Shown here: positions 6,606 through 47,762 of the stretch, one piece after another
Layout: every line of letters starts with the position of its first letter
Position numbering within the stretch: the stretch's first letter is position 1
Source: Longimicrobiales bacterium
GTDB lineage: Bacteria > Gemmatimonadota > Gemmatimonadetes > Longimicrobiales > Gaopeijiaceae
Direction of reading: 5' to 3'
NCBI GenBank assembly: GCA_963664435.2
Contig: CAXXKM010000003.1
Coordinates: forward strand, 352,001-416,000
Length of the DNA: 64,000 nt
Notes under the pieces: model-generated
Databases searched by the model: none
Told to the model about the DNA's origin: nothing
What the model saw: the letters and a program-made list of their open reading frames with translations, nothing else
Made by a program: the position numbers and the translations under genes

Positions 6606-6825
6606 CTGTGATTCGAACCCAGGGTTGAGCCTCCGGTGCTTCGCATCCTCGGCTCACCTTCGGCGCCGCTGCGCGGCCCCTCGGTTGCGAATCCCACCCC
6701 GGTCGTCTTTCGGACCGGCGGCAGGGCAACCTGTGATGCGAACCCAGGGTTGGGCCTCCAGGTGCTTCGCGTCGTCGGCTCACCTTCGGCGCCGCTGCGT
6801 GGCTCCTCGGTTGCGAATCCCACCC
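6606..6825 (+). repeat. two ~95-bp direct repeats (6606-6700, 6731-6825), each ending in a copy of the tRNA 3' end
   Basis: both read CTGTGAT(T/G)CGAACCCAGGGTTG...CGGCTCACCTTCGGCGCCGCTGCG...CTCGGTTGCGAATCCCACCC. Confidence 0.85.
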
Positions 6826-12802: not shown

Positions 12803-13852
12803 CTACCGTGGCCGCGCCAGCGGTCTTCCATCCAGCTCCCATCCCGGGTCGATTCCGATTCCGAGGTGATCCAGTGCCGTCGCGGCCACGTCCACGATGA
12901 ATGCGGGTCCGGGGGGCGGCCAGTTCGCGGTGTCGGAGCCGCTCGCAAGGATGAAGATGGTCATCTCCTCGGGTGAGTCGCCGCCGTGGCCGCCGTCCGC
13001 GCGCCTGCCGTGGTCGGTGCTGATGAGCACGAGCCAGTCCTCGTTCATGTAGCCGGGCCGCGCCCTGACCGCCTCGACCAGCATGCCCACATGCCGGTCC
13101 GCGAGCGCGATCGCGTCCCGGTACTCCGCGCCGATGGAGCCGTGCTGGTGGCTGGTCTCGTCGGGGTTGCCGAGGTAGACGAACATGGCGTCGGGGTCGG
13201 CGATGGCGAGATGGCGCACGGCCTGCGCGGTGAGTTCGGCATCGGCTTCGGCCCAGCCCAGGTCGTAGCCGTCCAGCACGACCCGGGTATCGACCGAAGG
13301 CGGGAGCACAGGATCGCCGCCTTCGAGTTCCGCGAGGGGCAGCCAGTCCAGGGCGGCGAAGGTGGCCAGAGCGGGGCGCTCCTGCTCCACGCGCGTCAGG
13401 AAGCTCGGCCAGGCGTCGTAGTCGCGGCCGGTGAAGTTGTTGTCGGTGACCCCGTGCTTTTCGGGCCAGACGCCGGTGAGCATCGAAGACCACGACGGGC
13501 CGCTCACCGACGGAGTGGTCGTGCGCGCTTCCGCCGTGTACCACCCGCTCGCCGCCAGCGCGTCCATGTTGGGCGTCGGGACCTCGGCGAGCACGTCCGG
13601 CCGCACGCCGTCAATGCCGATGAGGAGGACCTTGGGGGTGGCCTGGGTCGCGGCGGGCGTGGGTGAGGCGCAGAGGAGTGCGGCCATGGCAGCAGCACCA
13701 CAGAGTAGTGCGGCCCTGCTCCACGCCCGGGCGAGCACCGCAACCGTCCCCGACGCCCGGATGAGCGCCACGAATCCCGGTCCGATCGTCCGCGGGCATG
13801 GGCATGTGGCCCTCCCGCTGTGGCCGGCAGGCCGGCGAATCACTGTGGTCAT
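12803..13852 (-). CDS. alkaline phosphatase / nucleotide pyrophosphatase family protein
   Basis: KVLLIGIDGVRPD, SGPSWSSMLTG, PDETSH, STDHG; start uncertain. Confidence 0.85.
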   Translation of the reverse strand: MTTVIRRPAGHSGRATCPCPRTIGPGFVALIRASGTVAVLARAWSRAALLCGAAAMAALLCASPTPAATQATPKVLLIGIDGVRPDVLAEVPTPNMDALAASGWYTAEARTTTPSVSGPSWSSMLTGVWPEKHGVTDNNFTGRDYDAWPSFLTRVEQERPALATFAALDWLPLAELEGGDPVLPPSVDTRVVLDGYDLGWAEADAELTAQAVRHLAIADPDAMFVYLGNPDETSHQHGSIGAEYRDAIALADRHVGMLVEAVRARPGYMNEDWLVLISTDHGRRADGGHGGDSPEEMTIFILASGSDTANWPPPGPAFIVDVAATALDHLGIGIDPGWELDGRPLARPR

Positions 13853-14057
13853 CGCTCGCTCATCAGCTCCACAAGCCGCTCCACGCAGATGTTCCATCCC
13901 ACTTCGTGCCCTTCCCTGTCCTCCGGAGTGGGAAAGCCCTCGTGGGAAAGCCGGACTTCGGTGCCGTCCTCGGCCCGCGCGAACTCTACCGTCACCAGGG
14001 TCTCCGCCCTCATCGGGTGCGGCTCCTTCCAGCTCCAAGTGTAAGCCAGCCGACGCG
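13849..14057 (-). pseudogene. SRPBCC/AHSA1 family gene, 3' half (split by element 1)
   Basis: RRLAYTWSW...TLVTVEF...TEVRLSHEGF...HEVGW; joins in frame to the 5' half at 18169-18407. Confidence 0.88.
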
Positions 14058-14151
14058 ACATGATTAGTCGATTTTGCAACTCGTTGTAATCAGTGAACTT
14101 GCGAGTTTCGTGGGCCGGATTCCCGCCGAATGATTCCCGCTGACCGGGATT

Positions 14152-15315
14152 TCAGCCGCGAACGTTTCTGCGGCCTTCCAGTGCCGTCCTGAGTTGTCCG
14201 GCGTCCGGCCTCTGGTAACACCTGAGCACCGTCTGTGCATCCTTCCACCCGCCAAGCTCACATAGCACCTTGAGCGGAAGGTCCATCAGGTCGCTGGCGA
14301 ACTTGCGCCTCAGCGAGTGCCAGCCCCGCCGCGGCTTCGGCTCCAGTCCCGCGAGCGTCTGGGCCTTCCTCCACCACTGAAAGGCGGTAACGCGGTGCAT
14401 GCACCGCGTGGCATCCTTCGACGAAGGCAGTACCGGCGTGTTGCCTTTCCCGGTGCCCATCCCGCGCGCTTCCTCCAAGGCGGCGAGGGCCTCGTCGGTC
14501 AGCGGCGTGACGTGCTCGTAGCCCGTCTTCTCGTGTTCCGCCCGCCAGCGTACTTCACGGCCCTCGAAGTCGATGTCCTCCCACCTGAGGTTGCGGATGG
14601 CTCCGATTCGGTGCCCGGTTTCGTGCGCGAGCACGAGGGCGACGTGGAACCGCCAACCGACCTGCCGCGAAACCCCGAGCATTGCCCGGTACTCGTCCTC
14701 GGTGAGGACGACCCGGGCGGGGTTCTTCTCCCTGGGCTTCCTGAGGCCCTTCAGCGGGTTCCTGTCGAGCAACAGGCGGCCCCGCTCGTCCTTCGACCTC
14801 TCGGCCCAGTTGAAGACCGCCATGAGGAACGTCAGGTCCCACTCGATCGTCCGGTTGCCCACGGGCCTGCCCGAACGGCCGGCCCTTCCGGCCCGGCGCG
14901 CTTGGATGAACCGATCCCAATCGCGCTGTGAGAAGGTGGCGGGGTCGCGGTCCCGTCCGAAGAAGTCGAGGAACATCGCGGTCGCGACCCTGTCGCGCTC
15001 GCGCGTCCGCTTCCCCTTGGTCGGGGTGACCTCCTCTCCGTAAATGTCAAAGAGCGTGCCCAGAGTGAGCGGCTCGGGCTCGGCCTCGGCCTTGCCGTTG
15101 GGCTCGTGGACCGCGAAGCCCGCGGCGGCCTCGTCGGCCTGCCGCTTCGCGCGAGCCCAATCGCGGTGCCCCAGCGACCGGCTCCGCCTGCGCCCGTTCT
15201 CCCTCCACTCGATCTGGAGCAGGCCGGTTTTCGGATCCGGAAACACCCGGACCCGGTTCCGGCCCCATTCTCCGGCGCTGTAGCTGCGCCGGCTTCGTTT
15301 CGTGCGTGCCATCAT
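14152..15315 (-). CDS. site-specific tyrosine recombinase/integrase
   Basis: ETGHRIGAI (R), HEKTG (K), WHSLRR (HxxR), LGGW, CYQ (Y); N-terminal arm-binding-like region. Confidence 0.93.
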   Translation of the reverse strand: MMARTKRSRRSYSAGEWGRNRVRVFPDPKTGLLQIEWRENGRRRSRSLGHRDWARAKRQADEAAAGFAVHEPNGKAEAEPEPLTLGTLFDIYGEEVTPTKGKRTRERDRVATAMFLDFFGRDRDPATFSQRDWDRFIQARRAGRAGRSGRPVGNRTIEWDLTFLMAVFNWAERSKDERGRLLLDRNPLKGLRKPREKNPARVVLTEDEYRAMLGVSRQVGWRFHVALVLAHETGHRIGAIRNLRWEDIDFEGREVRWRAEHEKTGYEHVTPLTDEALAALEEARGMGTGKGNTPVLPSSKDATRCMHRVTAFQWWRKAQTLAGLEPKPRRGWHSLRRKFASDLMDLPLKVLCELGGWKDAQTVLRCYQRPDAGQLRTALEGRRNVRG

Positions 15316-15339
15316 TCGATTCCTCCGAGTGATGGACTG

Positions 15340-16445
15340 CACGATCCGCCTGCCCGAAAGCTCGCGGGGAAGCGGCTTGTCCGCCAGTCGCGTGCGGAAG
15401 GCGGTTTCCGGCCCCGAAACCGCCACCGGGGCCGTAGCGGGAGTGTCCGTCCGACATCGGAGGCGGGCGGACACGAAAACGTCCTCTCAGCGGACACGCC
15501 CGCGATTCCCAATGTCGCTGCCCAACTTTCGGTTGCGAGATGGCCACGGGAGCGGCCGTGGCGCGCGGGAGCCTGCGGGAGTGACCGGAGCAACCCCCCT
15601 CTTTCGATGCCTGGCGTGCCATCGGGGAGGATCGACATGGACAGGCCCATGCCGTCCTCCGAGGGAGGGTTGCTCCGGTCCAGCGATCCTTGGCAGGAAG
15701 GCTTTCAAGACAGAATGGGCGAGCGCGTGCGGAGCACTCCGTCCGCGACCGTGGCCTGCCTCTCCCTTGCGGTGAGGGGCGGCCGGCTCGGACCCTCGTT
15801 CGGGCGGCGGGTCTCCCGGCGTCCGAACGAGGGTGGGCAAGCGAAGCGCGGCAGCCCGGTCCGGGGCCGGGAGGTTCTGGTCGAGGGCCGGAGCGAGGAT
15901 CTCGACCGATACCAGAAGGGCGAGCGGGCCGTGCGCCGACAGCGCCCGGTAAATCGAGCGTGCGGCACGCGACCGGTGGCGAACCCGGTTCCCGTCAAGC
16001 GAACGGCAACCATGGTCGTGCGGGCGGCCACCCGATCGGGATGGGCCGCCACGGGGGGACGGGGGGCGACGCCCCCGCCCGCGCAATCCACCGGAGCGCG
16101 GGTCTGTTGGGGATCGAAGGGGCAACGTCCCTCGCCAGCCCGAATGTATTACTTCGGGTAGGCTGGCTTGTGCGCCTAACGGTGCTCCAAGCCAGCCCTG
16201 CGGCCGCCCCGCAAGAGACGCTCCCGCGAGCCGCCCGAGAAGGCGGTGGCCGGGCTGTCGCGGGCAAGCTCCTCAGGCCTCTCGGTTGTCGACCGCACGG
16301 ACGGCGGGAGGCAACGGGCAACCCGTCACTTCTTTGCGACGGCGGCGCTCCGAGCCGCGCACCGATTTCACCCTACTCCCTCCTCGGAGACCCGGGGGCT
16401 CGTCGGTCCTGGGCGATCCTACGGCCGTAGGTTTTTCGAAGACCA
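15340..16445. other. structured non-coding region of element 1 (modules A 15750-15860, B 15966-16230, C 16341-16443)
   Basis: dense inverted repeats; modules recur in element 2 with compensatory changes; no credible ORF. Confidence 0.7.
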
Positions 16446-16529
16446 GTCCGGCGCGCCGCCTCTGGAGGGTCACCGGGAAGGTGACGGGCTTCCGCTATCC
16501 GACAGCGGTGCGCCGGACTGAGTGAAGGC

Positions 16530-17084
16530 CTACGTGGTCACTCGGCCCTGGAAGTAGCAGAACCCGCCGGCGTTGGTCCAGAACGTGATGTCCGTCAGCC
16601 GATTGGAATTCCACTTGACGTACCGCACTGCCAAGCTGCTCGTGTTGGTGTCCGGGTCGTAGGTCCAAGGGGAACCGGAATGGTCACCGTACCTGCTCCA
16701 CCGCGTTCCCGCGATGTAGTAGCAGGCGTTCGTGTTGGTCCCAGTTCTGCCGTCAATGCGTTTGCAGTCGCCCCCGGACGCGACGCCGACGCCATTGTTG
16801 CCGGGGGGACTCGCGTTCGTGAAGTAGACGCGGAAGTGATGGCCGTGGCTGGCGGTCCGCCCCGGCACCGTCACGTTCAGATCACCGAGGAGAGTGTTGG
16901 TCAGGTCGCGGTCCAGCGACACTTCGCAGCTCCCAGCCTTGGCGTCGGCGGCGGTCTGCGTCGCGGCGAGCCTCTCGCCCTCGACGGGCGTGGCGTTCTG
17001 GTCGGCGGGGATCGCCTCGGTCGGCATGTCGGCGCACGAGGACAGCGCCACGGCGGACAGGGCACAGAGGATGGTCTTCTTCAT
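16530..17084 (-). CDS. hypothetical lipoprotein (element 1 cargo)
   Basis: MKKTILCALSAVALSSC lipobox; AGGAG RBS; ATG overlaps the upstream TGA. Confidence 0.7.
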   Translation of the reverse strand: MKKTILCALSAVALSSCADMPTEAIPADQNATPVEGERLAATQTAADAKAGSCEVSLDRDLTNTLLGDLNVTVPGRTASHGHHFRVYFTNASPPGNNGVGVASGGDCKRIDGRTGTNTNACYYIAGTRWSRYGDHSGSPWTYDPDTNTSSLAVRYVKWNSNRLTDITFWTNAGGFCYFQGRVTT

Positions 17085-17685
17085 CGCTTCTCTCCTTGGG
17101 TCGGGGGGTGTTTGAAGTGGTTGATGTCGGATAGGTGAGCCCATCGGGCATCCCTTGACACGAAAATCAGGCGGAACGTGTCGCCGGGACCCAATCCGCT
17201 GGGGATCAGCGCCCAGTCGTCGGGCACCACGGTGGCGTTCTGCTGCCGGGCCTGCATGGCCATGGCGTTGGCTGCGACGGGGAGCGGCACGTCGGCCAAG
17301 GACAGCTCGGCTTCGTCGGCGAACGGCGCGGCGGTCGGGATCTCGCCGCACGAGACGCCTGCAAGGCCAGCCAAGAGGAACGGGAACGCCCGAAGCGGGC
17401 GGCGCTCCGCTAGCGGCGGAGCCGGTTCCGTGGTTGGAAGGGTGCCGCAGGCGTCGCCGCGGCGGAAGGAATCAGGCGGAGCGGCTAGAAGCCGAAGGCG
17501 CTTCCATCGAGACGTACGACAGGCTCGGCTCGGCTCGGCTCGGCTCGGCTCGGCTCGGCTCGGCTCGGCTCGGCTCGGCTCGGCTCGGCTCGGCTCGGCT
17601 CGGCTCGGCTCGGCTCGGCTCGGCTCGGCTCGGCTCGGCTCGGCTCGGCTCTTAACGGTGCTGCGTAATCGATACCCATGGCCAT
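17081..17685 (-). pseudogene. lipoprotein-like gene, out of frame across the GGCTC tract (possible phase-OFF state)
   Basis: GGAGGGAG RBS + ATG 17685; downstream frame LLAGLAGVSCGEIP..VPDDWALIPSGLGPGDTFRLIFVS is open through the tract but out of frame with the ATG. Confidence 0.55.
17522..17651. repeat. perfect pentanucleotide microsatellite (GGCTC)26
   Basis: 130 bp of uninterrupted GGCTC. Confidence 0.97.
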
Positions 17686-18168
17686 GTCAACTCCCTCCGC
17701 TACCATCGGCTCCTCAGGACCATGAAAGATAACCGACCGTTCCCGCCGGGAGCAAACTACTCCCCCGGGTGACCGGCGGAGTTCCGGAGAAAGCGGCCGC
17801 TCCCGAATCGGGCGGCGCGTTTGGGTTGGGCTAGTGGCCAGCGCCGCCTCGGCGACCTCCGTCCATCGACACGCGGAGCATGTCCCGGTTATCGGCGGTG
17901 CAAGTGTCCCGGAACGGCGAGTCCCGCGCAGTATGGGCGGTGCCGTTCGCCTCGGGAGCGACGAGGGAGTCGTCCGCGTCGCCAACGCCCCGAATCCCCT
18001 CGGATCCGTGTCGGGCGGCTCCCTCGATTTCCCGTCAAACGATTCCGGCTTTCCGGTCATTCCGGCACGATCCAGCAAGATCCAGCACAACGGCAGAAAG
18101 GGCGGATCATGCAGTCCTGTATGACTTTAGATGATTCCCTGCCGTGATTCTGGCCTCTGGCGTTCCGC

Positions 18169-18407
18169 CGACGCGGCGGATCGACCTCGCGGTAGGTGCC
18201 GTGGGCGGTCACGTGACCGTCCTCGACCTCCAGGCAAATCGAGTAGCGCCCGCCTACGCGCAGATCGACATCCACCTCCACACCCGCGCTCGGATCGGGA
18301 TGCGTCCAGCGTTCCACTTTCTCTCTGCCGGTCCAGGCCGCGAAGACCTGCTCGGGCGTTGCCGGGATGGTGCTGAGAAGGTGCAGGGATGTCGAGTTGC
18401 GACTCAT
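18169..18407 (-). pseudogene. SRPBCC/AHSA1 family gene, 5' half
   Basis: MSRNSTSLHLLSTIPATPEQVFAAWT...DLRVGGRY...HGTYREVDPPRR. Confidence 0.88.
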
Positions 18408-26142: not shown

Positions 26143-26807
26143 TTGCGGTTCTTGTCGGAGACGGTACCCGAGCGATAGCGTTCCTCTCCCCCGAACAGGA
26201 ACCAGCCCATGCCGCCGCGATACTCGAAACCTCCCGGCACCACCTACCAACTCCGAGTCGCTCTCAAGGGGACCCGGCCCCCGATCTGGCGCCGCTTCCT
26301 CGTCTCGCCATCGATGAAGCTCTCCCGGCTGCACGATGTCCTTCAGGCCGTCATGGGCTGGTACGACAGTCACCTCCACATGTTCATCAAGGGCCGGCGG
26401 CGGTTCATGCTTCCCAACCCATGGATGGATGACATGAGCCGGTCCAGCGAGCCCCGGTTCCTCGACGAGCGCAAGTACCGGGTCGATCAGCTCCTGAAGC
26501 GGGAGAAGGACTGGATCGAGTATCAATACGACTTCGGCGACAGCTGGTACCACCGGATCACGCTGCAGAAGATCCTGCTTCGCGATCCCGCGGTACGGTT
26601 GCCGGTATGCGTCTCCGGGAAGCGCTCCTGTCCACCCGAGGACTGCGGTGGAGTCTGGCGCTTCTACGAGATGCTGGCCATTCTCGCGGACCCGGACCAC
26701 GAGGAATACGAGGAGATGGCGGAGTGGCTGGACCCGGACTTCGACCCGGAGGCGTTCAGCGTCAAAGACGTCAACGAGACGCTCCGGGCGGTGTTCGGCC
26801 GATGACC
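26143..26807 (+). repeat. ~665-bp direct repeat, copy 1 (copy 2 at 34046-34709)
   Basis: near-identical upstream region plus pRiA4b ORF-3 gene. Confidence 0.92.
26209..26805 (+). CDS. plasmid pRiA4b ORF-3 family protein
   Basis: PPIWRR, LHDVLQAVMGW..SHLH, YDFGDSW.H, CPPEDCGG. Confidence 0.9.
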   Translation: MPPRYSKPPGTTYQLRVALKGTRPPIWRRFLVSPSMKLSRLHDVLQAVMGWYDSHLHMFIKGRRRFMLPNPWMDDMSRSSEPRFLDERKYRVDQLLKREKDWIEYQYDFGDSWYHRITLQKILLRDPAVRLPVCVSGKRSCPPEDCGGVWRFYEMLAILADPDHEEYEEMAEWLDPDFDPEAFSVKDVNETLRAVFGR

Positions 26808-26857: not shown

Positions 26858-27931
26858 CTAGCGCGTCGTTCCCTCGCGGTAGGCATCGGTCAGGGCAGCG
26901 AGCAGCTCATCGGTGATGGCCGTGGCGGAACTCCCCTTCCCGATCTTGTCTCCGTTGATCTTTTCGACCTTGGCGATCGAGTGCGGCGCCCGCCTCTCGA
27001 ATACGGAACGCCAGAGCGACACGTACGGCTTGCCGTTGTCATTCCAGATCGTCACGAGGCCGGCCTTCTCCGTGGTGAACCTGGGGAGAAGCGTGAACCT
27101 GTTGCCCTTGACGCCCCGGTAGGTATACAGACGTACGCCCGGCAGGTCTGCCAAGCCGTCCGCCCACTGCAGGAGGAGGCGGAACACCTTCCGGTCCTCG
27201 TCTTCCACATTGGCCAAAGAAGCCCTGAAGGCGTCGGTGCCATCCGAGAGGACACCCTGTGCAGTTCCGCGCGGCTTCATCGGCGAGTCGGCGGCGCTCG
27301 CATCCAAGCCGAGCGAAACCCTCTGGGGCAGCGCGATTTCAGCACCACCCATCGCAAACCGCGAAACAGTGATCAGGTCAATCGTGATGGCTCGTCTCGT
27401 CACTGCATCCAGGTAGGCGACAATGCGCTCGAGTTCAACCGAGGTGTCGTCCAGCAGGAGCACGAGTCGAAATGCCCCGTTGGACAGGTAGTCCTGCATG
27501 GTCTCGACAAACGCATCCGCGTCTACTTCGCTCTGCTGATCCTGGGCCTGAACGGCTTCCAGAATCGACCCGTGACCCTGCTTCTGGAGGAATCCGCGCA
27601 ACGGCCCCCGCTCCAGTTCCTCCACCCTCGATCCCCGGAGCCATGCCGCGTAGGAGAGCGCCTGAGCCACGATCGCTCGCTTGGCTTCAGCGTTCCTGGC
27701 GAGCTTGACTTCGATGATGACGGGCCGTCCCGTCGTCTCCACGGCCAGCAGGTCTGCCCACCCGGAACCCAGAGAAACCTCGCTCCCGATGACGACAAGG
27801 TTCGGAGAACCCGCCAGCGGAAGCATGTGGATGTTCTCCTCAGCGAGTTCGTGCAGGTCCTTCTCCAACCCGAACTTCTGTGACGCAGCCGTCTTCCAGC
27901 CGTCCTTGCTCTTGACCCAGATTCCGCTCAT
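26858..27931 (-). CDS. NucS-like PD-(D/E)XK nuclease domain protein
   Basis: EKDLH..., ADLLAV...IIEVKL, QALSYAAWL. Confidence 0.75.
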   Translation of the reverse strand: MSGIWVKSKDGWKTAASQKFGLEKDLHELAEENIHMLPLAGSPNLVVIGSEVSLGSGWADLLAVETTGRPVIIEVKLARNAEAKRAIVAQALSYAAWLRGSRVEELERGPLRGFLQKQGHGSILEAVQAQDQQSEVDADAFVETMQDYLSNGAFRLVLLLDDTSVELERIVAYLDAVTRRAITIDLITVSRFAMGGAEIALPQRVSLGLDASAADSPMKPRGTAQGVLSDGTDAFRASLANVEDEDRKVFRLLLQWADGLADLPGVRLYTYRGVKGNRFTLLPRFTTEKAGLVTIWNDNGKPYVSLWRSVFERRAPHSIAKVEKINGDKIGKGSSATAITDELLAALTDAYREGTTR

Positions 27932-28134
27932 GTGGTGGTTTCCCCTACCTCGATCTCGCGGATTGCCATGCCAGCGGCATTCTCGACTGCCACTTCCATG
28001 TACTCGCGGACCGCATCCGCGATGGTCGCCAGAGCTTCCTCTTCCGTCGTCGCCTGGGAGGCACAACCCGGAAGGCCTGGAACCCAGACGGAGAATCCCT
28101 CTTCAGATTCTTCAAGCGCTACCCGGTATTTCAT
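27928..28134 (-). CDS. hicB: HicB-family antitoxin (no adjacent toxin)
   Basis: MKYRVALEESEEGFSVWVPGLPGCASQ.TTEEEAL. Confidence 0.85.
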   Translation of the reverse strand: MKYRVALEESEEGFSVWVPGLPGCASQATTEEEALATIADAVREYMEVAVENAAGMAIREIEVGETTT

Positions 28135-34045: not shown

Positions 34046-34709
34046 TTGCGGTTCTTGTCGGAGACGGTACCTGAGCGATAGCGTTCCTCTCCCCCGAACA
34101 GGAACCAGCCATGCCGCCGCGATACTCGAAACCTCCCGGCACCACCTACCAACTCCGAGTCGCTCTCAAGGGGACCAGGCCCCCGATCTGGCGCCGCTTC
34201 CTCGTCTCGCCGTCGATGAAGCTCTCCCGGCTGCACGATGTCCTTCAGGCCGTCATGGGCTGGTACGACAGTCACCTCCACATGTTCATCAAGGGCCGGC
34301 GGCGGTTCATGCTTCCCAACCCCTGGATGGATGACATGAGCCGGTCCGGCGAGCCCCGCTTCCTCGACGAGCGCAAGTACCGGGTCGATCAGCTCCTGAA
34401 GCGGGAGAAGGACTGGATCGAGTATCAGTACGACTTCGGCGACAGCTGGTACCACCGGATCACGCTGCAGAAGATCCTGCTTCGCGACCCCGCGGTACGG
34501 TTGCCGGTATGCATCTCGGGGAAGCGCTCCTGTCCACCCGAGGACTGCGGTGGAGTCTGGCGCTTCTACGAGATGCTGGCCATTCTCGCGGACCCGGAGC
34601 ACGAGGAATACGAGGAGATGGCGGAGTGGCTGGACCCGGACTTCGACCCTGAGGCGTTCAACGTCAAAGACGTCAACGAGACCCTCCGGGCGATGTTCGG
34701 CCGATGACG
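34046..34709 (+). repeat. ~665-bp direct repeat, copy 2
   Basis: near-identical to 26143-26807. Confidence 0.92.
34111..34707 (+). CDS. plasmid pRiA4b ORF-3 family protein (duplicate)
   Basis: differs from the 26209 copy at only about 5 of 198 residues. Confidence 0.9.
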   Translation: MPPRYSKPPGTTYQLRVALKGTRPPIWRRFLVSPSMKLSRLHDVLQAVMGWYDSHLHMFIKGRRRFMLPNPWMDDMSRSGEPRFLDERKYRVDQLLKREKDWIEYQYDFGDSWYHRITLQKILLRDPAVRLPVCISGKRSCPPEDCGGVWRFYEMLAILADPEHEEYEEMAEWLDPDFDPEAFNVKDVNETLRAMFGR

Positions 34710-34770: not shown

Positions 34771-35718
34771 CTAAGCCCCCGATCTCCCCGGCTCCCGCGC
34801 ACCGTTCTCGACGAGCAGCTTCTCGCGTGCCTCATGATGGTTCCGGATGGCCCAGTCGAGCTGGTAGTCGAGCACCCGGCCCTTCCCCGACCGCCAGTTG
34901 ATCCGGTGCTCACAATTGAGCCCGTATTCAAGCAGCATTTCGAGGCAGCGGTCGTCGCGACTGAACATCCGGTTGTAGAGCGCCTGGCCGTCGTTGGGAT
35001 CAGCGCCCGCGTCGAGCAGGAGCCGGGCGAACTCCTTCCACTCCGGGTGCGGCGGCTGGTTGGCCGGGCCCTGCTCGCCCTCGCCGAAGGCTCCCGTCAG
35101 CGCGGTGAACCGGCAGTCACCGCCCCACATGTAGAAGGCATTTGGAGTCGCGCCGCGCTCGACGAGAAGGCGCGCCGTTGCGAGTGTCGACCGGTCAGGC
35201 AGATCGAGCCGGGAGTATGCGGCATAGAGCAGCGGCTCCCAGTCGAACCACCCGCCCCGAGCCTCAATGAGAGAGGGGTCGGCGTCGAGTATTCGCTCCA
35301 TCTCGTCCTTCTCGCCCACACATGCGGCGTGCCAGATGTCGCGCACGGCCAGTGATGGGTCGCTCAAGAGCATTTCGCGGGCCCGCCGCCGGAAGACCGG
35401 CCGATCATGGTGGTAGTTCAGGCACGCGAGGTGGAGGAAGTCCGCCTCTTCGGCGGGGACGGGCTGGTCGACGTGGGTCTCAAGTTGCCGCCAGGTGAGG
35501 AACCCGTAGCGGTGGGCGATCCGTTGGCGGGCGAGGCCGTCCGGGAGCCCCAGCGCGGTCGCCTCCTGCTCGATGGCCGGCAGGGTTGTGGGGGTGGGGA
35601 GGAAGTGGAGGGCAAGTGCCGCGGAGTTGCCGGGTTGGTCGCTCATGTGGCCAGCGTGCGACAGGTCGGCCGGTGACGCAAGGGAGCTCGCAGGGTTGCC
35701 GCCATCAGGGTTACTCAC
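34771..35718 (-). CDS. ankyrin-repeat domain protein
   Basis: WEPLLYAAYS, LLVERGA.PN, LLLDAGADPNDGQALYN; start uncertain. Confidence 0.8.
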   Translation of the reverse strand: MSNPDGGNPASSLASPADLSHAGHMSDQPGNSAALALHFLPTPTTLPAIEQEATALGLPDGLARQRIAHRYGFLTWRQLETHVDQPVPAEEADFLHLACLNYHHDRPVFRRRAREMLLSDPSLAVRDIWHAACVGEKDEMERILDADPSLIEARGGWFDWEPLLYAAYSRLDLPDRSTLATARLLVERGATPNAFYMWGGDCRFTALTGAFGEGEQGPANQPPHPEWKEFARLLLDAGADPNDGQALYNRMFSRDDRCLEMLLEYGLNCEHRINWRSGKGRVLDYQLDWAIRNHHEAREKLLVENGAREPGRSGA

Positions 35719-38700
35719 CCAGCAAGCCGGAGGACCCGCCCCTGACGTCGTCCGGCACTCGCAGCAGAGACCCTTCGCGCAGGATCGTGCCCCGCTTCAC
35801 CAGCTCGTCCAGTACTTGCCGGAAGCGTCCTACGATCTTGGGGCCGGATCTCTTGAAGCCGAAGATGCGGATCGCCTCCCCTGCCGCGTCGGCGGGCCTG
35901 ATGCCGTAGCTCACCCGGACGGCGTGCACCAGGGCGGTCCCGACTTCCTCGGAGGCGATGCGGGCGGGGTTGCGGAGGGACGAAGGGATGTCGCCATCCC
36001 GGCGCCGTACCTCGACGGCTTCGTGCTCGAGCCGCCAGAGGAAGTCGTGCTTGTCGATCCTGTATAGTCTCCGCCTCGCGCCCGCCGTTACGCCCAGTCG
36101 CATCTGCGCACGGATGCGGGAGCCGGCGCGTCCCACCCCGGCAGCCTTGCGGATCCGGAGGATCACCTCGTCGAAGTGAACCGGGCTCTCCAACTGCACC
36201 ACCTGGGCGATCCACTTCGCCAGCCGGCCAGCGGGGATCTCGTGGAGCGGCGTGCTGAGGAAGCCGATGCCGGGTCGGGCCACTCTGTAGGGAGCCGTGG
36301 GCGCGGGAATCTCCGGTTCGGGCTCGGGCACGCACTCGAGGGGCTTCGGGGGCGAGGGCTTCGGCGCGGGCCGTGGCGCGCCGCTCATTCTCGCGGATCG
36401 GACCGCCGCCGCGACCCGTTCGAGTTCCTGCTGCGGGTTGCGGAACCAGTCGGTGCTCCAGATGCGGTGGATACGCCAGCCCAGCCCCTCCAACACCTGC
36501 TGCCTCAGGCGGTCCCGGTCGCGGGCGGAACGGGAGCTGTGGTAGGTGGCGCCGTCGCATTCGATGCCCAGGAGGTAGCGTCCGGGACGCTCGGGGTCGA
36601 CCACCGCCAGGTCGACGAAGAACCCGGCCGATCCCACCTGGTGGTCGACGTCGTGGCCCAGGGCGCGCAGCCGGGCGGCGACCGCTTCCTCGAACGGGGA
36701 ATCGGCCTCTTTTCCGCTCGCCTCGGGGACGTCGATGACTCCGTGTTGCGCGTACTCCAGGAAGGTCTTGAGCGCCCGCACGCCCCTCGCGCCGGAGCGC
36801 CTGAGGTCCAGATCCGCGCCGACGAAGTTGCAGTAGACGATGCAGCGCCGGCGGGCCCGGGTGATGAGCACGTTCAGGCGCCGCTCGCCCCCGTCGCGGT
36901 TGAGCGGTCCGAAGTTCATCGGCAGATAGGCGCCGTCGATCTTGCCGTAGCCGATGCTGATGAGGATCACGTCGCGCTCGTCTCCCTGGACGTTCTCCAG
37001 GTTCTTGACGAAGAAGGGCTCCTCGGGATGGGCGGCGAAGAACTCCTCGTGCGAGGGATCGCGGCGGCGCAGGATGTCGGCCTCGTCCTCGATGCGGCGG
37101 GCCTGGACGTTGCTGAAGGCCGCGACGCCCAGGGTGAGCTCGGGGGTCTCGCGGGCGTGCTTCATGACGGCCTGCGCGATCGTCTTCGCCTCGGCGGTGT
37201 TGATGCCCCGGCGCTGGTAGTCGGCGTCGGGATCGTGGCGGAAGAGGAGGCCGGTGTCGACCTTGCCGGCGTCGGGGCTCGGGAAGACCACCAGGCGATT
37301 GTCGTAGAACTCGTGGTTCGACACCGCGATCAGCGACTCGTGGCGGCTGCGGTAGTGCCAGCGGAGCATCCTCTCGCGGGCCCCCTGGGCGCAGAACATG
37401 CCCAGGATGCTTTCCAGGTCGGCGGTCCGGCTCGCCTCCTCTTCCCCGCCGTCGGCCATGCGGTCGAAGAAGCTGGTCGGCGGCAACTGTTTGCTGTCGC
37501 CCACCACGACCGTCTGCCTGCCCCGGATGATGGCCCCGAGGGCTTCGACCGGCCGGACCTGGCTCGCCTCGTCGAACACCACCAGGTCGAAGGCGACCGA
37601 CCCGGGCGGAATGTACTTGGCGATCGAGAGCGGGCTCATCATCAAGACCGGCTTGATGCTCTGGACCGCCCGGCCCGCCTCCCGCATGAGCCGGCGGACG
37701 GCCAGGTGGCGGGTCTTCTTCTGGAACTCCCGCCTGAGGACGCCCAGCTGGCCTCCGCCTTGGTGGCGCGGAAGCTGCTCCCAGTGGCGCTCGGCGATGA
37801 CCGCCCGGTTGCGGTGGAACTGCGCCATGTCCAGCTCGCGGAAGCGGTCGATGAGCCCCCCGTGGGTCGCCCCGTCGAACCGCGCCAGCGCCTCCTGTTC
37901 GCGGAAGGCCGCGTCCAGCCAGGCGGCGTAGCAGGCGTGCTCGAAGAGGGCGGCGAGCCGGCGGTCCGCGTCCGGGCGTGACGCCGCAGCTCCGGCCACT
38001 TCCGGGATGCGCATTTCGGCGGCCTGCTTCTCCAGCTGGTTGAAGCGCACCACGTCGTACATGGAGGGAACGCGGTTGAGCGCGGCCCTGAGCCAGGCAT
38101 CCAGGGCACCACAGGCGCGCTCCTCCAGTGACTCGCCGGGGTCCAGCCGCTCCGGCCGCAGCTCCATCACATCGGCGAGGGCGTCCAGCGCTTCCGCCAG
38201 CGCCTCCATCGCGCGTTCGCAGGCGTCGGCGGCGGCGCGGAGTTCGGCCGGGTCGGAGGGATCAGCGGAGGGCGGGCCCGCCGCGTACCCGGAGCGAGGC
38301 TCGCCGGAGTGTCCATGCAGGCGGTCCAGCAGGTCGTGTATCTCGTCGCCCACGAGCCCTGCGGCCTCGTCGCGATGCAGCTGCACCAGCCAGGCCGCGG
38401 CCTCCGCGAAGGCGCGGTGCTTCTCGGCCCGGTCGCCCAGGCTCAGCCCCGGGCACAACCGGCCGATCAGGTCCCCCGCTTCCTCGACTTCCCGCCGCAG
38501 GCGCCCCGCCTCCAGGATGGCGTCCACCAGCTCGAGCTGCTCCCGGACGGCGCCGGGCATCTCCCCTCGGCAGAGCCCCGCGAGCCTCCTGCGCGCGGCC
38601 CGGAACGGAACGGACAGGAAGCGCCACCACTTGCCGCCGTAGGCGCGCAGGGCCTGACGCTCCGCGAGCACATTCTCGTCCCAGGCCTCGGGGATGAGGA

Positions 38701-40612
38701 CGGCATCGTGCCGCGAGCGGAGCTCGGCGAAGGAGCGGGCGACCTCGGCCACCTCCTCGATGCGCGCGGCCTCGGCGACCCAACCCGGGCTGCGCTGATC
38801 GGCCTCCCCGAGCGCCGGAGCGTCCAGGGCCGTGCGCACGGTGCGGATCATCCGCTCCACGTCCGCGGGCTTCTGCTCCCCGAACGTCCTGTCGCGGCCG
38901 AGCCGCCCGATCAGCTCCTCCGCCTCCCCTCCCAGGCGGCGCAACGCCCCCGATGCGGCCTCCAGGACGTGGCGCACGGCATGCTCGTCGGTGGGCACGA
39001 AGTGGAGCCGGCCGCACGGCCACCACACGTGTTTGCACGGAACGCCGATCGCGCGCACCAGCTCCTGGAGCTCGCGCGCCACCTCGCGCCGGCGAATGAA
39101 CTGCTCGTCGCTCCACGACACCGAGTCCCCGATCGGGAGCCCCGGGCCGTCGACCTCCAGCCCATCCTCCCTCAGCTGCGCCAGACGGCCGACCAGGTCG
39201 TGCGGGGTCAGGCCGCTCCGTCCGACCGGCGAGTTGACCGCGCGCGCGTAGTCGTTCAGGCGATCCCGGGCCTCCTCGAGCAGCACCCCGTCCCCGGTCC
39301 CGCGCTCGACCTTCGGCCGGCCCATCGCCAGCGTGCGCTTCAGCTCGTCCAGCACGACGCGCTTGTTGGTCTTGTGGCTGTGCAGCTCCAGGCAGGCGTC
39401 GCCCAGGTGGATCGCGTCCAGGCGCCGCTTCACGACCTCCAGGGCGGCCATCTTCTCCGCCACGAAGAGGACCGTGCGACCGCCGGCCAGCGCCTCGCCG
39501 ATCAGGTTGGTGATGGTCTGCGACTTCCCGGTGCCCGGAGGCCCCTGGATCACCAGGTTGCGGCCCTGGATCGCGTCCAGAACCGCGAGCGTCTGCGAGC
39601 TGTCCGCGTCCATCACCGGATGGAGACCCGCCACCCCCTCGGCATCGTCGATGTGCTCGTCCTCGCCGATGTCGGGCGGCCCCGGCGCGAATCCGTCGCC
39701 GCCGAAGAGCTGCTGCACCAGCGGGTGATCGGCCGGCCGGCCTCCTTCCGGCCAGGTCTCGGCATCGAGGTCCTTGTAGATGAGCAGCTTGCTGAAGGAG
39801 AAGAAGTTCAGATGGACCTCGTCGTGCTCGACCGCCCAGCGCTCCCTGCGCGCGACCGCCTTCCCGACCCGCGACAGGTAGTCGTCCACGTCGAGATCTT
39901 CCTCGGCCGGCATCTCCGGCAACCGGATGCCGAAGTCCTGCTTGAGCTTGGCCTCGAGCGAGAGGTTCGCCTCGATGTCGTCCCCGGTCCACCTGAGCTT
40001 GAAGCTCTCCCGCACGCCGGATCTGTCGAGTTGCACCGGGATCAGGATCAGCGGCGCGCGGCGCGCGGTGCCGCTGCTCTCGGACTCGTACCAGCGGAGG
40101 ATCCCGAGGGCTAGATAGAGGATGTTGACCCCCTGTTCCTCGATCGAGAGGCGGGCCTGACGGAAGGTCTCGCGCAGGCGCAGATTGAGCGCGGCGCGGG
40201 CAAGCGCCGTCTGGAGCTTGTTGTCGGTGTGGCGCGCGGCGGCTCCGTCGGGGTCGTCGTCGGGCTCGCCCAGCATGGCGAGGAGCTCGGAGGGGACGTC
40301 GTCGAGGTCGTCCGTGGCATCGATGTCGTGCCTGGCGTTGAGGGCGTCCGTGGCCGGCTGTCCGGTTGCCGGGATCGCCGTCTCCGCGGAGGCGGGCAGG
40401 AAGTACATGACCCGCGGGCTCCGGGACGAGGATCCGTCGGGCACGGGACCGCCCACGAGGATCCGGAAGAGCTCGCGCGAGCGCTCGTCCACGACCTCTA
40501 TGCCGCGCCGCTTCGTCGGGCGGAAGTTGAGCAGCGGGTTCGTGAGGGAGAGATCGAGGACGTCGCGGCGGGATTTCTCGAGTTCCTGCCGGATCGAGGA
40601 GAGGTCGGTCAT
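35711..40612 (-). CDS. DUF4011 - SF1 (Upf1-like) helicase - very-short-patch-like REase - DUF3320 protein (Hhe-type defence)
   Basis: LDLSLTNPLLNF, QGPPGTGKSQTI, FDEASQ, GDSKQLPP, VQGDERD, NVLITRAR, IECDGATYH..RDRDRLRQ, RIWSTDW. Confidence 0.9.
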   Translation of the reverse strand: MTDLSSIRQELEKSRRDVLDLSLTNPLLNFRPTKRRGIEVVDERSRELFRILVGGPVPDGSSSRSPRVMYFLPASAETAIPATGQPATDALNARHDIDATDDLDDVPSELLAMLGEPDDDPDGAAARHTDNKLQTALARAALNLRLRETFRQARLSIEEQGVNILYLALGILRWYESESSGTARRAPLILIPVQLDRSGVRESFKLRWTGDDIEANLSLEAKLKQDFGIRLPEMPAEEDLDVDDYLSRVGKAVARRERWAVEHDEVHLNFFSFSKLLIYKDLDAETWPEGGRPADHPLVQQLFGGDGFAPGPPDIGEDEHIDDAEGVAGLHPVMDADSSQTLAVLDAIQGRNLVIQGPPGTGKSQTITNLIGEALAGGRTVLFVAEKMAALEVVKRRLDAIHLGDACLELHSHKTNKRVVLDELKRTLAMGRPKVERGTGDGVLLEEARDRLNDYARAVNSPVGRSGLTPHDLVGRLAQLREDGLEVDGPGLPIGDSVSWSDEQFIRRREVARELQELVRAIGVPCKHVWWPCGRLHFVPTDEHAVRHVLEAASGALRRLGGEAEELIGRLGRDRTFGEQKPADVERMIRTVRTALDAPALGEADQRSPGWVAEAARIEEVAEVARSFAELRSRHDAVLIPEAWDENVLAERQALRAYGGKWWRFLSVPFRAARRRLAGLCRGEMPGAVREQLELVDAILEAGRLRREVEEAGDLIGRLCPGLSLGDRAEKHRAFAEAAAWLVQLHRDEAAGLVGDEIHDLLDRLHGHSGEPRSGYAAGPPSADPSDPAELRAAADACERAMEALAEALDALADVMELRPERLDPGESLEERACGALDAWLRAALNRVPSMYDVVRFNQLEKQAAEMRIPEVAGAAASRPDADRRLAALFEHACYAAWLDAAFREQEALARFDGATHGGLIDRFRELDMAQFHRNRAVIAERHWEQLPRHQGGGQLGVLRREFQKKTRHLAVRRLMREAGRAVQSIKPVLMMSPLSIAKYIPPGSVAFDLVVFDEASQVRPVEALGAIIRGRQTVVVGDSKQLPPTSFFDRMADGGEEEASRTADLESILGMFCAQGARERMLRWHYRSRHESLIAVSNHEFYDNRLVVFPSPDAGKVDTGLLFRHDPDADYQRRGINTAEAKTIAQAVMKHARETPELTLGVAAFSNVQARRIEDEADILRRRDPSHEEFFAAHPEEPFFVKNLENVQGDERDVILISIGYGKIDGAYLPMNFGPLNRDGGERRLNVLITRARRRCIVYCNFVGADLDLRRSGARGVRALKTFLEYAQHGVIDVPEASGKEADSPFEEAVAARLRALGHDVDHQVGSAGFFVDLAVVDPERPGRYLLGIECDGATYHSSRSARDRDRLRQQVLEGLGWRIHRIWSTDWFRNPQQELERVAAAVRSARMSGAPRPAPKPSPPKPLECVPEPEPEIPAPTAPYRVARPGIGFLSTPLHEIPAGRLAKWIAQVVQLESPVHFDEVILRIRKAAGVGRAGSRIRAQMRLGVTAGARRRLYRIDKHDFLWRLEHEAVEVRRRDGDIPSSLRNPARIASEEVGTALVHAVRVSYGIRPADAAGEAIRIFGFKRSGPKIVGRFRQVLDELVKRGTILREGSLLRVPDDVRGGSSGLLGE

Positions 40613-40950
40613 GGGCGGGGGGGGGGGGTCGGGCAGGCCGGGCGGCGGGACGGGAGGCTGTACCGGTCGTTGGCCGGTCTGACGGGGGGCGTGGGAGAGG
40701 GACGGTGGGGAGGGTGCAGGGATTGGGGTTCGGGGCGCAAGGGTGGCGGGAGGGGTTAAGGGCTGTAATGCGGATAGTCGTCGTGGTATCCCAACGTTCC
40801 TTACCCTCTCGGGGTTAGCCAAGAAAGTCATGTCTACATCACATGATGTAATGTTGACATGATATATCTGCTCCTCGGGTGCGGCGCTCGGCGGCGACTA
40901 CTGGCTGGAACCGGACGAATCCGAGTGGTCAGTCAGCGCTTGAGGGGGCT

Positions 40951-41982: not shown

Positions 41983-44900
41983 TTATTGGTGCCACGTCCG
42001 GAGTCTCGACAGACTATTTCGGTCGACTAGCCACACGCCGCCGGCTCTTGCCAAGTCTTGGGCGGGGGCTGTGAACCCTGCCGCGTTGCTGACAACCATC
42101 GGCCTTGGCTCCCCGATGACATCGTACTTGGACAGAGACGCGAGGACCTCCCGCACGGCACCAACGCCGCACTTGGCCTCGGGCTGCATGTGTTTGCACT
42201 GCACGACAATCGTGTGCGACGCGCCAGGCATGCGGGAATAGGCCAAGCCGTCAGCACCGCGGTCACCGCTCCGAGGAGTTTGTCGGGTCTCGTAACCAGC
42301 CGATGCCAGTTGTTGGAGAACCCAGGATTCGAAAGCTGTGGGCTCCAGCAGGTCGACGGCGGGTTGACCTTCGGGGCGGTCGTCACCGTCGGCTGACGCC
42401 TCGGTCATCGTGCTCTTGTAGAGGTCGCTGACGTCCGCAGGTGTTGCCGCAGCGGGCGCAAGGACTTGGCGATTCATCTCCCGCTTTCGTTCCATCAAGC
42501 TGTCGAGCTTCAGATCAAAGCTGAACTCGCCGAAACGAGGATGCTTCGCAAGCGGTAGGTAGACGTGAACAGTTCGCTCTTGGCCGATTCGGAAAGCCCG
42601 GTCCGTACACTGGTCCTCGACTGCCGGATTCCACCATCGCGAGAGATGGATGACGTGGTTCGCGGCCGTCAATGTCAGGCCAACGCCGCCCGCACGCGGC
42701 GATAAGATCATCACGTCAAACGCTTTCCGATTCTGAAACTTGTCAACGCGCGCCTTACGTGCCCGACCTGAAACCGCTCCATTGATGACGAGCACGTCCT
42801 CCCGGAGTTCAAACCGTCGCCGGAGCGCTCCGATGAGGAAGTCTTGCATTTGGCGAGATTCTACGAAGAGGAGCGCCTTTTCGCCCTGCGCTGCGATTGA
42901 ATCGAGAATCTTGAACGTCTCGGATAGCCGAGCGGATTCCGCGATGTAGTCGTCGATGTCTCCGTCGCCTGGAGCACGCGGATGCAGCGAGATGCTGCGA
43001 AGGTAATGGAGCGATTGGAGCATGCTGCGACGCTGCTGGGGATCCAACACGATGTTGGCGTACCGATTTGCTTGCCCTGACGGCATCTCGACTACCCGTC
43101 TGTGGACAAGCTCTTGGGGCAGTCTCGGGATCCGTTCTTCCTTGAGTCGGCGCAGCATGAGCGCCGGACCTGACTCCTCGCTCGGCTGCGTAAGAGCGCG
43201 ATGCAAATCAGGCAGTGAGGACGCCACGCCCGTCTCGCGCTCATAAAGCGCACTGAAGTCCTTCAGGGTTCCGAACCGCCCTGGCTCCGCGCGGTCGAGC
43301 AGCGACCAGATATCCGCCGGCCGATTCTCGACAGGAGTTCCCGTCATGAGAAGAGCAAAATCAATATCCATGGCCAACGCCGCCTCCGTGAGGCGTATGT
43401 TCGGATTCTTGATTTTTTGTGCTTCGTCGAGGATGCTTGCTCGCCACCGGATCCTGCCAAAGCTGTGTTGATAGTCGCGAAGAGTCTCGTAGGTGGTAAG
43501 CACCCAGTCCGCATCCTTCAGGATCTCGAGACGCAAGAGCGGTTGACCAAGAGCTAGCTCGCCGCCACGTCCAACCGGAGCACGCCTTCGCATTCGCCGC
43601 AAGGCGGCGCCATGGGCCTCAACGGCGCGGCCAAGCCCACGCCCGGACAAGTGCTTGTCGTGCTCATCCTGCCAGTTGCGGAGGAGTCCGGTCGGGGCCA
43701 CGACCAACATCGGCTGCGGCTCCAGCTTCTTCGCCCGTGCGTACGTTTGCAAACAGGAAAGAAACGCCAATGCTGTCAGCGTCTTGCCGAGCCCCATGTC
43801 GTCAGCCAGGAGTGCGCCCCAGCTCCCTGCGGCCCAGTGCGTGCACAGCCACGATAGTGCTTCCTCCTGATGCGGCATGAGCGAAGTACGGAGTACTGGC
43901 GCGACGTTCGCGATCCCCCGTTTCCGCCTTCTTCTCTGCCGCTCGAATCCGATCGCTTCAAGGTTGTCGATGACAAGTAGGACCTGGTCGGTATCGTCCG
44001 AATCCACCTTCTCGCGTGGTTCAACATCGAGCTTGGGGCGTTGAACCGGCGGCGATTTCCGAATCAGTTCGTCAATGGCCTCCAACGTGGTCGAGTTTGC
44101 GGGGATACTGGTGCCCTCGTCGACTTCCACCGTGGCATCGCCCCGCTCCATCGCAGCCTGTGTTCGCTCGCGAAGCGATGGCAGGTCATCGGCCGATATC
44201 ACCACGATCTGGGAACCGAACCGAAGTCCCAGTTGTTCTGGTGGCAGCCACGGTTCTGAAGCTCGCTTGATCCATGGAAGCGCTCTATCCTCCCAGATGC
44301 CGATGCCCCTGACGCGCTCGCTGAGTCCATCGTCGCTGAATACACGGTCAAGTTCGACCTCTGCATCCTCATCCGTGTCCAGCGCGCCACGCAGGTATCC
44401 CGAGACGTTGCGCAGGAAGTCTCGACGTTCGTTTGCGGTGCCACCTTGTGCACGTCGTACGGCGCGAAGAGACCGTTCTACCTCCGGAGTTAGTACGACA
44501 TAGGCGCTTCCTCCCACGGCATACCGATGCCTGACCCGGGATAGTCCGCGGAACTTCCGTGCGAATTGTTCTTGCGGAGCCGTTGGCAGGACTGGAGCGA
44601 ACACCTTTTCATCCTCTCCTACGTCCGTCGTTCGTGTTTCACGTCTACCGACAATGGGGTCGAAATCCGGTTCACCTTCCTCGTTAACGAAGGGATTCAG
44701 GGCAAAAGTTGAGGCAACGACGATCTTGAGTGAGCGCAGGTGTCGATTATCAACTACCGTGTCGTCCGGCAGCAGCTCGGCGATCTGCCCCCATCGGAGC
44801 ATTCGTGATTCGATATCCGTCCGACCAGTCCGGTTGAATTCATCGATGGCTTCTGTGATGGCGTACAGTGGGTCGAGCAACACAAAATCTTTTTCCCCAA

Positions 44901-45300: not shown

Positions 45301-45337
45301 AGGCGATCAACGGGTCCTCGGTGTCGAGCGAGAAACA

Positions 45338-46879: not shown

Positions 46880-47760
46880 CGTTGCCTCCCACCAACTCGC
46901 TCACGAACTTCAGCCTGAATGTCGGACTCGTCCGCTGCGAGTGCGTCTCTGGGTGGTTCCAGGAGGAAACGCAAGTCGATGCGGCGGTTATCATCCGAGC
47001 GTTCCGGGTCGCGCGTCGCCGGCCGAGTGTTTCCGTACCCGCTGGTGCTAAGAATGGCGTAACCATCGCTGTTCAGCAGATTCTCCACCCCTGGTTCGCA
47101 GGCCGTGATCATCCGATGGACGGTGGCTGCCCGCATCGACGACAGCTCCAGGTTGTCTCTGAATCGCTGGCCGGCCGCGACCGGCACATGGTCGGTATGG
47201 CCCTCGATCAACAACGTCTCGAGTAACCAGGGGTATTGTCGCTCGCGACAATCGTAGGCATACGGATCGGCAGCCATCTCACAGTAGGCCGGGTCGCCGC
47301 CGTCACCACCCGCCATCGTGTCGAGGGCATGCCGTGTTGAGAACGTGTTGTCCTCGGGGACATAACAGGGGACAACTTCGGCGATGGCCCTGGCTACGCG
47401 CCCGACGTTGACGCGATGGTCGATGATCGGAGTTTCGCTCCCGGATGGGAAATTGATGGAATTTTCCGATAGCCGCAGTACGCCTTGGTCCAGCAACACC
47501 TCGACACGGATCTCAGATCTCTCAAGCCGATCGGCGATTGCCGTGAGTATTCGAGCGCGCGTCTCGTCCGCTGCCCTCAGTTCTTCGGTGACGCTGGCTT
47601 GTTCCTCTGTCGCCGTCGCGAGCTGGTACGCGAAAATCGCAAGCATGATAATGAACACAAAGATGAACGCGGACACCAGATCGCTTACGGTGGCAAGATA
47701 ATTCTGGCCACCTTGACTCTGGCCCGTACCCGAAGACGGTCGCCATTCGCCCGTTGTCAC
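46876..47760 (-). CDS. zorB: Zorya ZorB, MotB/OmpA-like
   Basis: SDLVSAFIFVFII TM with conserved Asp; IEGHTD, NLELSSMRA, NRRIDLRF. Confidence 0.88.
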   Translation of the reverse strand: MTTGEWRPSSGTGQSQGGQNYLATVSDLVSAFIFVFIIMLAIFAYQLATATEEQASVTEELRAADETRARILTAIADRLERSEIRVEVLLDQGVLRLSENSINFPSGSETPIIDHRVNVGRVARAIAEVVPCYVPEDNTFSTRHALDTMAGGDGGDPAYCEMAADPYAYDCRERQYPWLLETLLIEGHTDHVPVAAGQRFRDNLELSSMRAATVHRMITACEPGVENLLNSDGYAILSTSGYGNTRPATRDPERSDDNRRIDLRFLLEPPRDALAADESDIQAEVRERVGGRQR

Positions 47761-47762
47761 CC

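Follow-up and report, generated by a model that had tools for sequence, protein, structure and literature searches.

Why do two integrase-bearing elements of one chromosome share three hairpin-rich non-coding modules, A, B and C, that follow each other in a different order in each element? Both elements lie in the window, a stretch of 64,000 nucleotides (C3:352001-416000) from a host genome of 4.5 Mb with 68% GC, and a 711-nt region of it is matched in 23 of the 61 genomes searched, including 17 of the 18 others of the same genus. Self-comparison of the window by blastn recovers A (15751-15858 and 55126-55233, 88% identity over 108 nt, E 3e-32) and B (15962-16237 and 54576-54844, 80% over 276 nt, E 8e-59) as shared segments; C (16340-16440 and 54920-55005) aligns in multiple alignments but is absent from the blastn self-comparison. 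The order given in the original prediction, A-B-C in element 1 and B-C-A in element 2, is right, and all motifs quoted there are found at their places. The explanation favored here, with a probability of roughly 0.7, is that both elements are integrative hitch-hikers devoid of a relaxase, in which B would be a predicted origin of transfer (oriT) left after the loss of mob genes, A the stranded end of an IS3-family insertion sequence and C a conserved sequence on the leading side.

The limits and integrases of the two elements can be read directly from the DNA:

14049 to 14057, plus strand: left att site of element 1, a 9-bp direct repeat with a 7-bp core
14152 to 15315, minus strand: intact tyrosine integrase of element 1, 387 aa (PF00589, E 1.5e-21)
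18167 to 18175, plus strand: right att site of element 1, the same 9-bp repeat as at 14049-14057
51321 to 51327, plus strand: left att core of element 2, the same 7-mer as at 57586-57592
51424 to 52302, minus strand: integrase of element 2, N-terminal part missing, match limited to residues 145-440 of the element 1 long ORF
57586 to 57592, plus strand: right att core of element 2, the 7-mer shared with 51321-51327

Element 1 (14049-18175) interrupts a gene with an AHSA1/SRPBCC domain, and its integrase has 32 tblastn matches in its own genome. The relative G005 has the empty site for element 1 and, elsewhere, a twin that is 92-95% identical; as judged from these sequences, element 1 has moved between sites. 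Contigs of four sequencing runs over 13600-17500, a stretch that excludes the right att site, provide coverage and many paralogous variants and no excision joint. Element 2 spans approximately 51321-57592 and is delimited by its 7-bp repeats alone. Neither element contains a secretion system, and none of the 13 relaxase-domain (PF03432) matches of the genome falls in the window, where only gene fragments are present. Judging by its gene content, element 1 is likely an oriT-only integrative element. Integration of the two window elements into tRNA genes was considered and ruled out, as the cores lie in a gene or in intergenic DNA. The cargo of element 1 includes a short tandem repeat array at 17522-17651, and a 13-bp inverted repeat with three other copies in the genome is located at the end of a cargo gene (16450-16590).

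The origin of module A is revealed by alignment to other copies:

15751 to 15856, plus strand: module A of element 1, non-coding tail of an IS3-family right end, aligning to the IS3 end in locus L044, tip of the terminal repeat lost
15857 to 15945, plus strand: coding fragment of a second (VirD2-like) relaxase, aligning to the intact gene in locus L073
55072 to 55285, plus strand: module A of element 2, IS3-family right end with the terminal inverted repeat kept at 55072

Members of the IS3 family have terminal inverted repeats, an orfA/orfB DDE transposase and a short target duplication. Extended to the left, the A alignment has a sharp common start. From this start onward, three loci of the relative G008 (L050-L052) share 1353 identical nt between differing flanks, and these copies encode orfA/orfB with HTH_Tnp_1, HTH_21 and rve domains; the single complete copy inspected has an inverted repeat at its far end and a 3-bp duplication. 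The best plasmid matches are annotated as 'IS3 family transposase' (NCBI). Complete relatives thus share terminal repeats, orfA/orfB, all three domains and the 3-bp duplication with the IS3 family, whereas the window holds only the right end, of about 110-210 nt, and neither a complete IS3 element nor a pair of ends. At the sequence level, A is shown to be a stranded right end of an IS3-family insertion sequence. The adjoining scrap belongs to a relaxase gene of which two other loci have intact copies (PF03432, E 1.3e-25 for an intact copy).

The long hairpin tail is limited to one sub-lineage, and other IS3 relatives carry different tails. Among the 27 terminal-repeat matches examined, a transposase lies within 700 nt in seven; the other 20 are tails without transposase, three of which stop at a contig edge. 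The stem of A folds more stably than shuffled sequences (z -4.55 and -4.19), and 8 of the 27 pairs of the long stem show a double change among 17 sequences (0 of 500 shuffles), every change occurring in a single sequence. This covariation is real but shallow, and the compensatory changes first noted in the window hold for this stem. A tail kept without its transposase, with double changes, leaves room for co-option as a single-strand structure (priming site or terminator), with A, B and C forming a functional cassette. In favor of co-option, each of the four A copies in the genome has an integrase within 10 kb, the closest IS3 transposase remaining there is just 31-32% identical and double changes are found in copies that lack the transposase. 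However, none of 40 independently selected C loci carries A within 2.5 kb, and the A copies represent few lineages with common junctions, as one or two old insertions would produce. Double changes can also arise without selection, by single-step template switching in palindromes, which could explain those of A. Co-option is therefore regarded as very unlikely, and the idea that the three modules form one functional unit is not supported, given the same 40 loci and their separate origins. Blastn with A against plasmids gave no match, and a literature search on IS3 tail hairpins returned nothing relevant.

Module B is made up of a former gene start and a structured core:

15934 to 16037, minus strand: left part of module B in element 1, decayed 5' end of mobC, aligning to an intact sibling mobC (C3:44019-44354)
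16038 to 16107, plus strand: stretch between the mobC start and the oriT core, with G/C hairpins, near-identical in siblings with an intact mob operon
16108 to 16200, plus strand: core of module B in element 1, predicted MOBP5-like oriT with a G-run hairpin, a variable inverted repeat, GCTGGCT at 16162-16168 and a downstream hairpin
52500 to 52590, minus strand: second predicted oriT (B*), belonging to the second relaxase family and aligning to the region before intact mobC2-relaxase2 in L073
52625 to 52682, plus strand: decayed 5' end of mobC2, identified by alignment
54547 to 54650, minus strand: left part of module B in element 2, decayed 5' end of mobC, identified by alignment
54715 to 54812, plus strand: core of module B in element 2, predicted oriT with GCTGGCT at 54773-54779

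In both elements the initial codons of mobC are recognizable by alignment in the left part of B, and the intact sibling gene at C3:44019-44354 matches PF05713 and PF21983. Intact siblings carry, in this order, oriT, mobC, relaxase and ORFs resembling MobB and MobD, and in most of them the integrase comes next. At E<1e-3, a B-core profile matches the genome 29 times, and nine of these copies have a mobC start on the opposite strand directly 5' of the core, at a distance of up to 200 nt. Nineteen of the 29 lie within 10 kb of an integrase, compared with 11% of random positions; the other ten are more than 10 kb away from any integrase match. The two G/C hairpins of 16038-16107 are present in 9 and 4 of 27 oriT copies. 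The ACCGG..CCGGT hairpin, which was called invariant, occurs beside two of the 27 oriT copies only, both in the window, and lies within decayed mobC coding sequence that is no more stably folded than shuffled sequences (z +0.64 for the left part of B); it is common to the two window copies by descent. Conservation of pairing rather than coding frame, as put forward for all modules, likewise fails for the mobC-derived parts B1/B2 and for 15857-15945, which are gene remnants, and a conserved peptide, named with the prediction as something that would refute it, is to some extent present, in so far as part of B once encoded MobC. In element 2, B* and the mobC2 stump (52500-52682) stand in place of the front of the integrase gene; B* has nine copies in the genome.

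Comparison with mobilizable plasmids specifies the type of origin. With the 711-nt region as query, the sole plasmid matches lie just upstream of annotated mobC in two Aeromonas plasmids. In seven plasmid loci picked by relaxase similarity, the oriT plan upstream of mobC consists of a G-run hairpin, CCAG, a variable inverted repeat and CTGGCT. The B-core HMM detects four of the seven at E<=1e-4, Crocosphaera at 5e-3 and ColE1 at 0.19, and misses the Polaromonas oriT; in plasmids of Aeromonas, Citrobacter, Methylomarinovum and Crocosphaera, the same core lies ahead of an annotated mobC (E 1e-8 to 5e-3). The CTGG/CT motif is the same in ColE1 and four other plasmids as at 16162 and 54773. By analogy to ColE1, which we take to be nicked inside a CTGGCT-type motif (CTGG/CT), the predicted nick of element 1 would presumably fall between 16166 and 16167. 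The inverted repeat beside this predicted nick covaries, with 26 double-change cells in 24 sequences (0 of 500 shuffles); counted by pair, 6 of 18 pairs show double changes (21 of 500 shuffles). The B core also folds better than shuffles in both elements (z -3.60 and -3.25). For the MOBP5 group, an oriT motif upstream of mobC has been predicted, and the G-run hairpin of the B core agrees with it as far as the motif is given in the available part of that publication (PMC3832669). The sibling relaxase scores above the cut-off for PF03432 and below it for NF047848 (MbeA, E 2e-27); its motif III reads H...HxH where ColE1 has H...ExN, and the H-E-N signature of the MOB-HEN subgroup is absent from it. 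Module B is hence predicted, from sequence comparison, to be a ColE1-superfamily (MOBP5-like) oriT joined to a decayed mobC 5' end. The proposed candidate of a transfer origin used in trans suits this module, and such use is probable.

A rolling-circle replication origin served by a Rep protein in trans was also considered for B, since the loop TGTATTAC, found at the hairpin apex in both window copies, resembles CRESS-type origins. Among siblings, however, the apex varies freely and GCTGGCT is kept, the neighbors are mobC and a MOBP relaxase, and no Rep ORF cluster lies beside the 25 copies examined, among the matches listed. A rolling-circle function is hardly conceivable on this evidence, and the variable apex speaks against a CRESS-like origin in particular. 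A reading of the GTAG-palindrome as REP/BIME was rejected too, its copies being tied to mobC and integrases (19/29 within 10 kb versus 11%).

Module C follows the predicted oriT in both elements:

16215 to 16440, plus strand: modules C0 and C of element 1, conserved stretch 3' of the predicted nick (leading side)
54825 to 55005, plus strand: modules C0 (partly deleted) and C of element 2

Relaxase genes enter the recipient last (PMC11541004); by this rule, the strand predicted to be transferred is the plus strand, with C on its leading side. C is also found past the end of the second relaxase gene, where it lies on the opposite strand, again the one predicted to be transferred. Its sequence is conserved around a short central palindrome. 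RNAalifold finds no consensus pairs in 34 C copies, folding does not depart consistently from shuffles (z +1.41 and -1.45) and the TACGG/CCGTA stem, for which compensatory changes had been noted, is kept in only 9 of the 34 copies. Covariation, suggested for the modules as a whole, is accordingly found in the stem of A and the inverted repeat of B but not in C. A -35/-10 core is present on the predicted transferred strand in one of 38 C copies. When loci are picked by C alone (n=40, independent), an oriT core precedes C by 130-300 nt in 28 of them, on the same strand. The 40 exact matches to a module-C pattern come from 33 Gemmatimonadota/Longimicrobiales, five Acidobacteriota and two Gammaproteobacteria records; blastn of C against plasmids gives weak matches to unrelated coding DNA only. 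As a guess, C may serve second-strand priming or protein binding.

These distributions bear on whether the modules could be dead debris, in which the oriT is a leftover of a mob operon, movement is restricted to integrase-only relocation within the genome and conservation reflects recent common descent. In line with this, mobC, mobC2, relaxase 2, the IS3 element and the integrase of element 2 are all broken, and decayed copies are abundant in the genome. On the other hand, the oriT core and C are kept together without mob genes in many genomes and three phyla (28/40 C loci) with the adjacent mobC decaying, the oriT inverted repeat covaries and a near-identical twin of element 1 occupies a different site in G005. 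Debris is thus an improbable account of the family, albeit one that deserves consideration. For the two window copies themselves, the many broken copies in the genome and the truncated integrase of element 2 mean that they may be dead.

An integrase-associated non-coding RNA, the other candidate of the original prediction, would be in keeping with the stable folds predicted for A and for the B core. Nevertheless, A is an IS3 end that is also present on complete IS copies, B includes a broken gene, the modules arose separately at the DNA level, their order is not kept and C has no consensus fold. Using Rfam 15 with the gathering score as cut-off, only a tRNA is matched in the window, next to three chance matches with E 0.35-0.92. 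An RNA function of the modules can be considered extremely unlikely.

For the hitch-hiker reading, the permuted order is most simply explained, as far as the known arrangements suggest, as a relic of rearrangement. An IS3 element would have landed just after C (B-C-A), a second B-C block would then have joined behind it via relaxase and mobC scraps (C-A-scrap-B-C), and trimming of the front would have left A-B-C. The order B-C-A (or B..A) is seen in element 2 and two other genome copies. In the twin of element 1 (G005; L033), B is preceded by the tail of C and the IS end, and the metagenome loci L185 and L192 contain P (a further structured element described below), C, A, the relaxase scrap and the oriT, with a second C in L185. 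Because of these intermediate orders in the twin, L185 and L192, the A-B-C of element 1 is viewed as a trimmed partial tandem rather than as shuffled functional modules.

Mobilization in trans would draw on genes located elsewhere in the genome, where the 13 PF03432 matches are of MOBP type and four VirB4-like loci are present. At least two inspected conjugation operons encode VirB2, a VirB4-like protein, VirB6, VirB8, VirB9, VirB10, a coupling protein and ArdC, and adjoin the same integrase family. These divergent operons (L200, C3:1153500-1173400; L201, C1:1574000-1593900) are missed by PF03135 and PF02534. The view that the genome has no helper (PF03135 in 0/19; PF02534 in 3/19, with the own genome not among them) can be dismissed, given that the divergent operons are present. 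The L200 and L201 operons also encode two uncharacterized proteins of about 300 aa, one of them Replic_Relax-like; the resemblance of this ICE protein to Replic_Relax (score 0.89) is to be taken as a lead only. In another genome of the same genus (G012:C257), loci L091-L092 comprise a full F-type conjugation region with a MOBF relaxase. Nicking, transfer, the identity of the helpers and any role of C are inferred. The integrase would excise the element at the 7-bp cores, sibling elements would supply the MobC and relaxase that bind to the inverted repeat and cut at CTGG/CT, and a resident ICE would export the plus strand with C first and the mobC stump last. C may act in second-strand priming or protein binding, and the integrase would re-insert the circle.

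Some siblings are inserted in the oriTs of other elements. Their right ends abut the left half of an oriT in 4 of the 45 cases from the genome and 2 of the 12 from related loci, after two flagged rows had been dropped and one unflagged row added upon inspection:

C2:913757, C3:430068, C3:623016, C3:625372, L033:5753 and L083:306: right ends in oriTs, seven bases 5' of the nick motif

The 7-bp cores of these siblings are similar to the heptamer directly 5' of GCTGGCT in intact oriTs. The twin of element 1 in G005 is inserted in an oriT and neither window copy is; the chromosomal target of element 1 itself resembles the nick region.

A further structured non-coding element, P, of about 290 nt, accompanies the integrases:

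15405 to 15705, plus strand: element P in element 1
52711 to 53010, plus strand: element P in element 2

Thirty-two of its 34 genome copies lie within 10 kb of an integrase. Double changes are found in 9 of 17 consensus pairs, a covariation stronger than that of any of modules A, B and C, and P folds equally on both strands. It is often found in convergent pairs, upstream of integrases and inside ICEs (L200:5986-6290), there between a 310-aa gene and the coupling protein gene. Of the metagenome matches to a P pattern, 33/34 fit the P profile, and 21 of these have an integrase or oriT within 2 kb. None of 36 P copies has a -35/-10 core, the P pattern has no matches in viral contigs and blastn with P against plasmids gives no match. 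A broader proposal, which is tentative and rather doubtful at present, holds that one integrase family serves ICEs, relaxase-bearing and oriT-only elements, that a sub-lineage of it lands at the seven bases beside the MOBP5 nick motif and that C and P are new signals of the single-strand phase (a priming site, or an origin for the Replic_Relax-like protein of the ICEs).

Several known systems can be compared with these elements. The mob region of the ColE1 superfamily (MOBP5; ColE1, Aeromonas pAsa1/pAsal2, Paracoccus pMARC2/pAES4), as presented in the available parts of PMC3832669 and PMC5935869, has the same oriT core upstream of mobC and the same gene order as the intact siblings. The sibling relaxase is 45-53% identical to those of these plasmids over its N-terminal half; in contrast to the plasmids, the elements described here are chromosomal, integrase-borne and likely of Gemmatimonadota, show no HEN signature and, in the window copies, lack mob genes. 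Integrase, att sites, oriT, cargo, the absence of a relaxase and potential helpers in the genome are features in common with the iOriTs, which are reported from six hospital pathogens and are said to have nothing but the oriT in common with their helpers (Ares-Arroyo et al., bioRxiv 10.64898/2026.01.13.699239). Unlike iOriTs as portrayed there, the integrase family here is shared with relaxase-bearing siblings and ICEs, derivation by gene loss is visible and element 2 has two oriTs. Insertion into the oriT of another element, seen for the siblings and the G005 twin, parallels the IME_oriT of streptococci and Staphylococcus aureus; compared with the accessible account of these, the target oriTs are MOBP5-like and not MobT, targeting is partial (4/45) and element 1 in the window sits in a gene (Libante et al. 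2020, PMC7563843). Like the Frpo/ssi single-strand promoters and priming sites of leading regions (PMC11541004), C directly follows the nick on the strand predicted to be transferred, but neither C nor P has the -35/-10 core and C has no consensus fold.

What these results add is useful annotation rather than discovery, with about 29 naturally occurring versions of a ColE1-type oriT from a single uncultured genome. They suggest that oriT-only integrative elements arise by gene loss from relaxase-bearing siblings, beyond the pathogens so far cataloged, and they illustrate that hairpin-rich 'modules' near integrases may turn out to be the ends of insertion sequences and remnants of pseudogenes. 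If C or P were new priming or transfer signals, or if oriT targeting were adaptive, this would bear on how gene-less hitch-hikers are re-established after transfer. Among the papers listed by literature searches on Gemmatimonadota and sponge symbionts, none deals with these elements.

The remainder of the window contains further features, listed here as separate observations. A complete Zorya type I-like operon with ZorA-D is located at 41983-49580 (minus strand), a large DUF4011 helicase-nuclease (PDC-S37/Hhe) at 35711-40831 (minus strand) and two paralogous NucS-like proteins (PDC-S11-like) at 26858-28066 and 49812-51116 (minus strand). Three copies of a segment of about 600 bp, 98% and 70% identical, occupy 26143-26806, 34046-34708 and 57719-58277, and a DDE_3 (IS630-like) transposase gene is found at 61300-62379 (minus strand). 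Just past tRNA-Ser, two repeats of about 95 nt (6606-6699 and 6731-6825) contain a tRNA-like T-loop sequence; elsewhere in the genome, C2:689401-692178 is an array of 17 tRNA genes.
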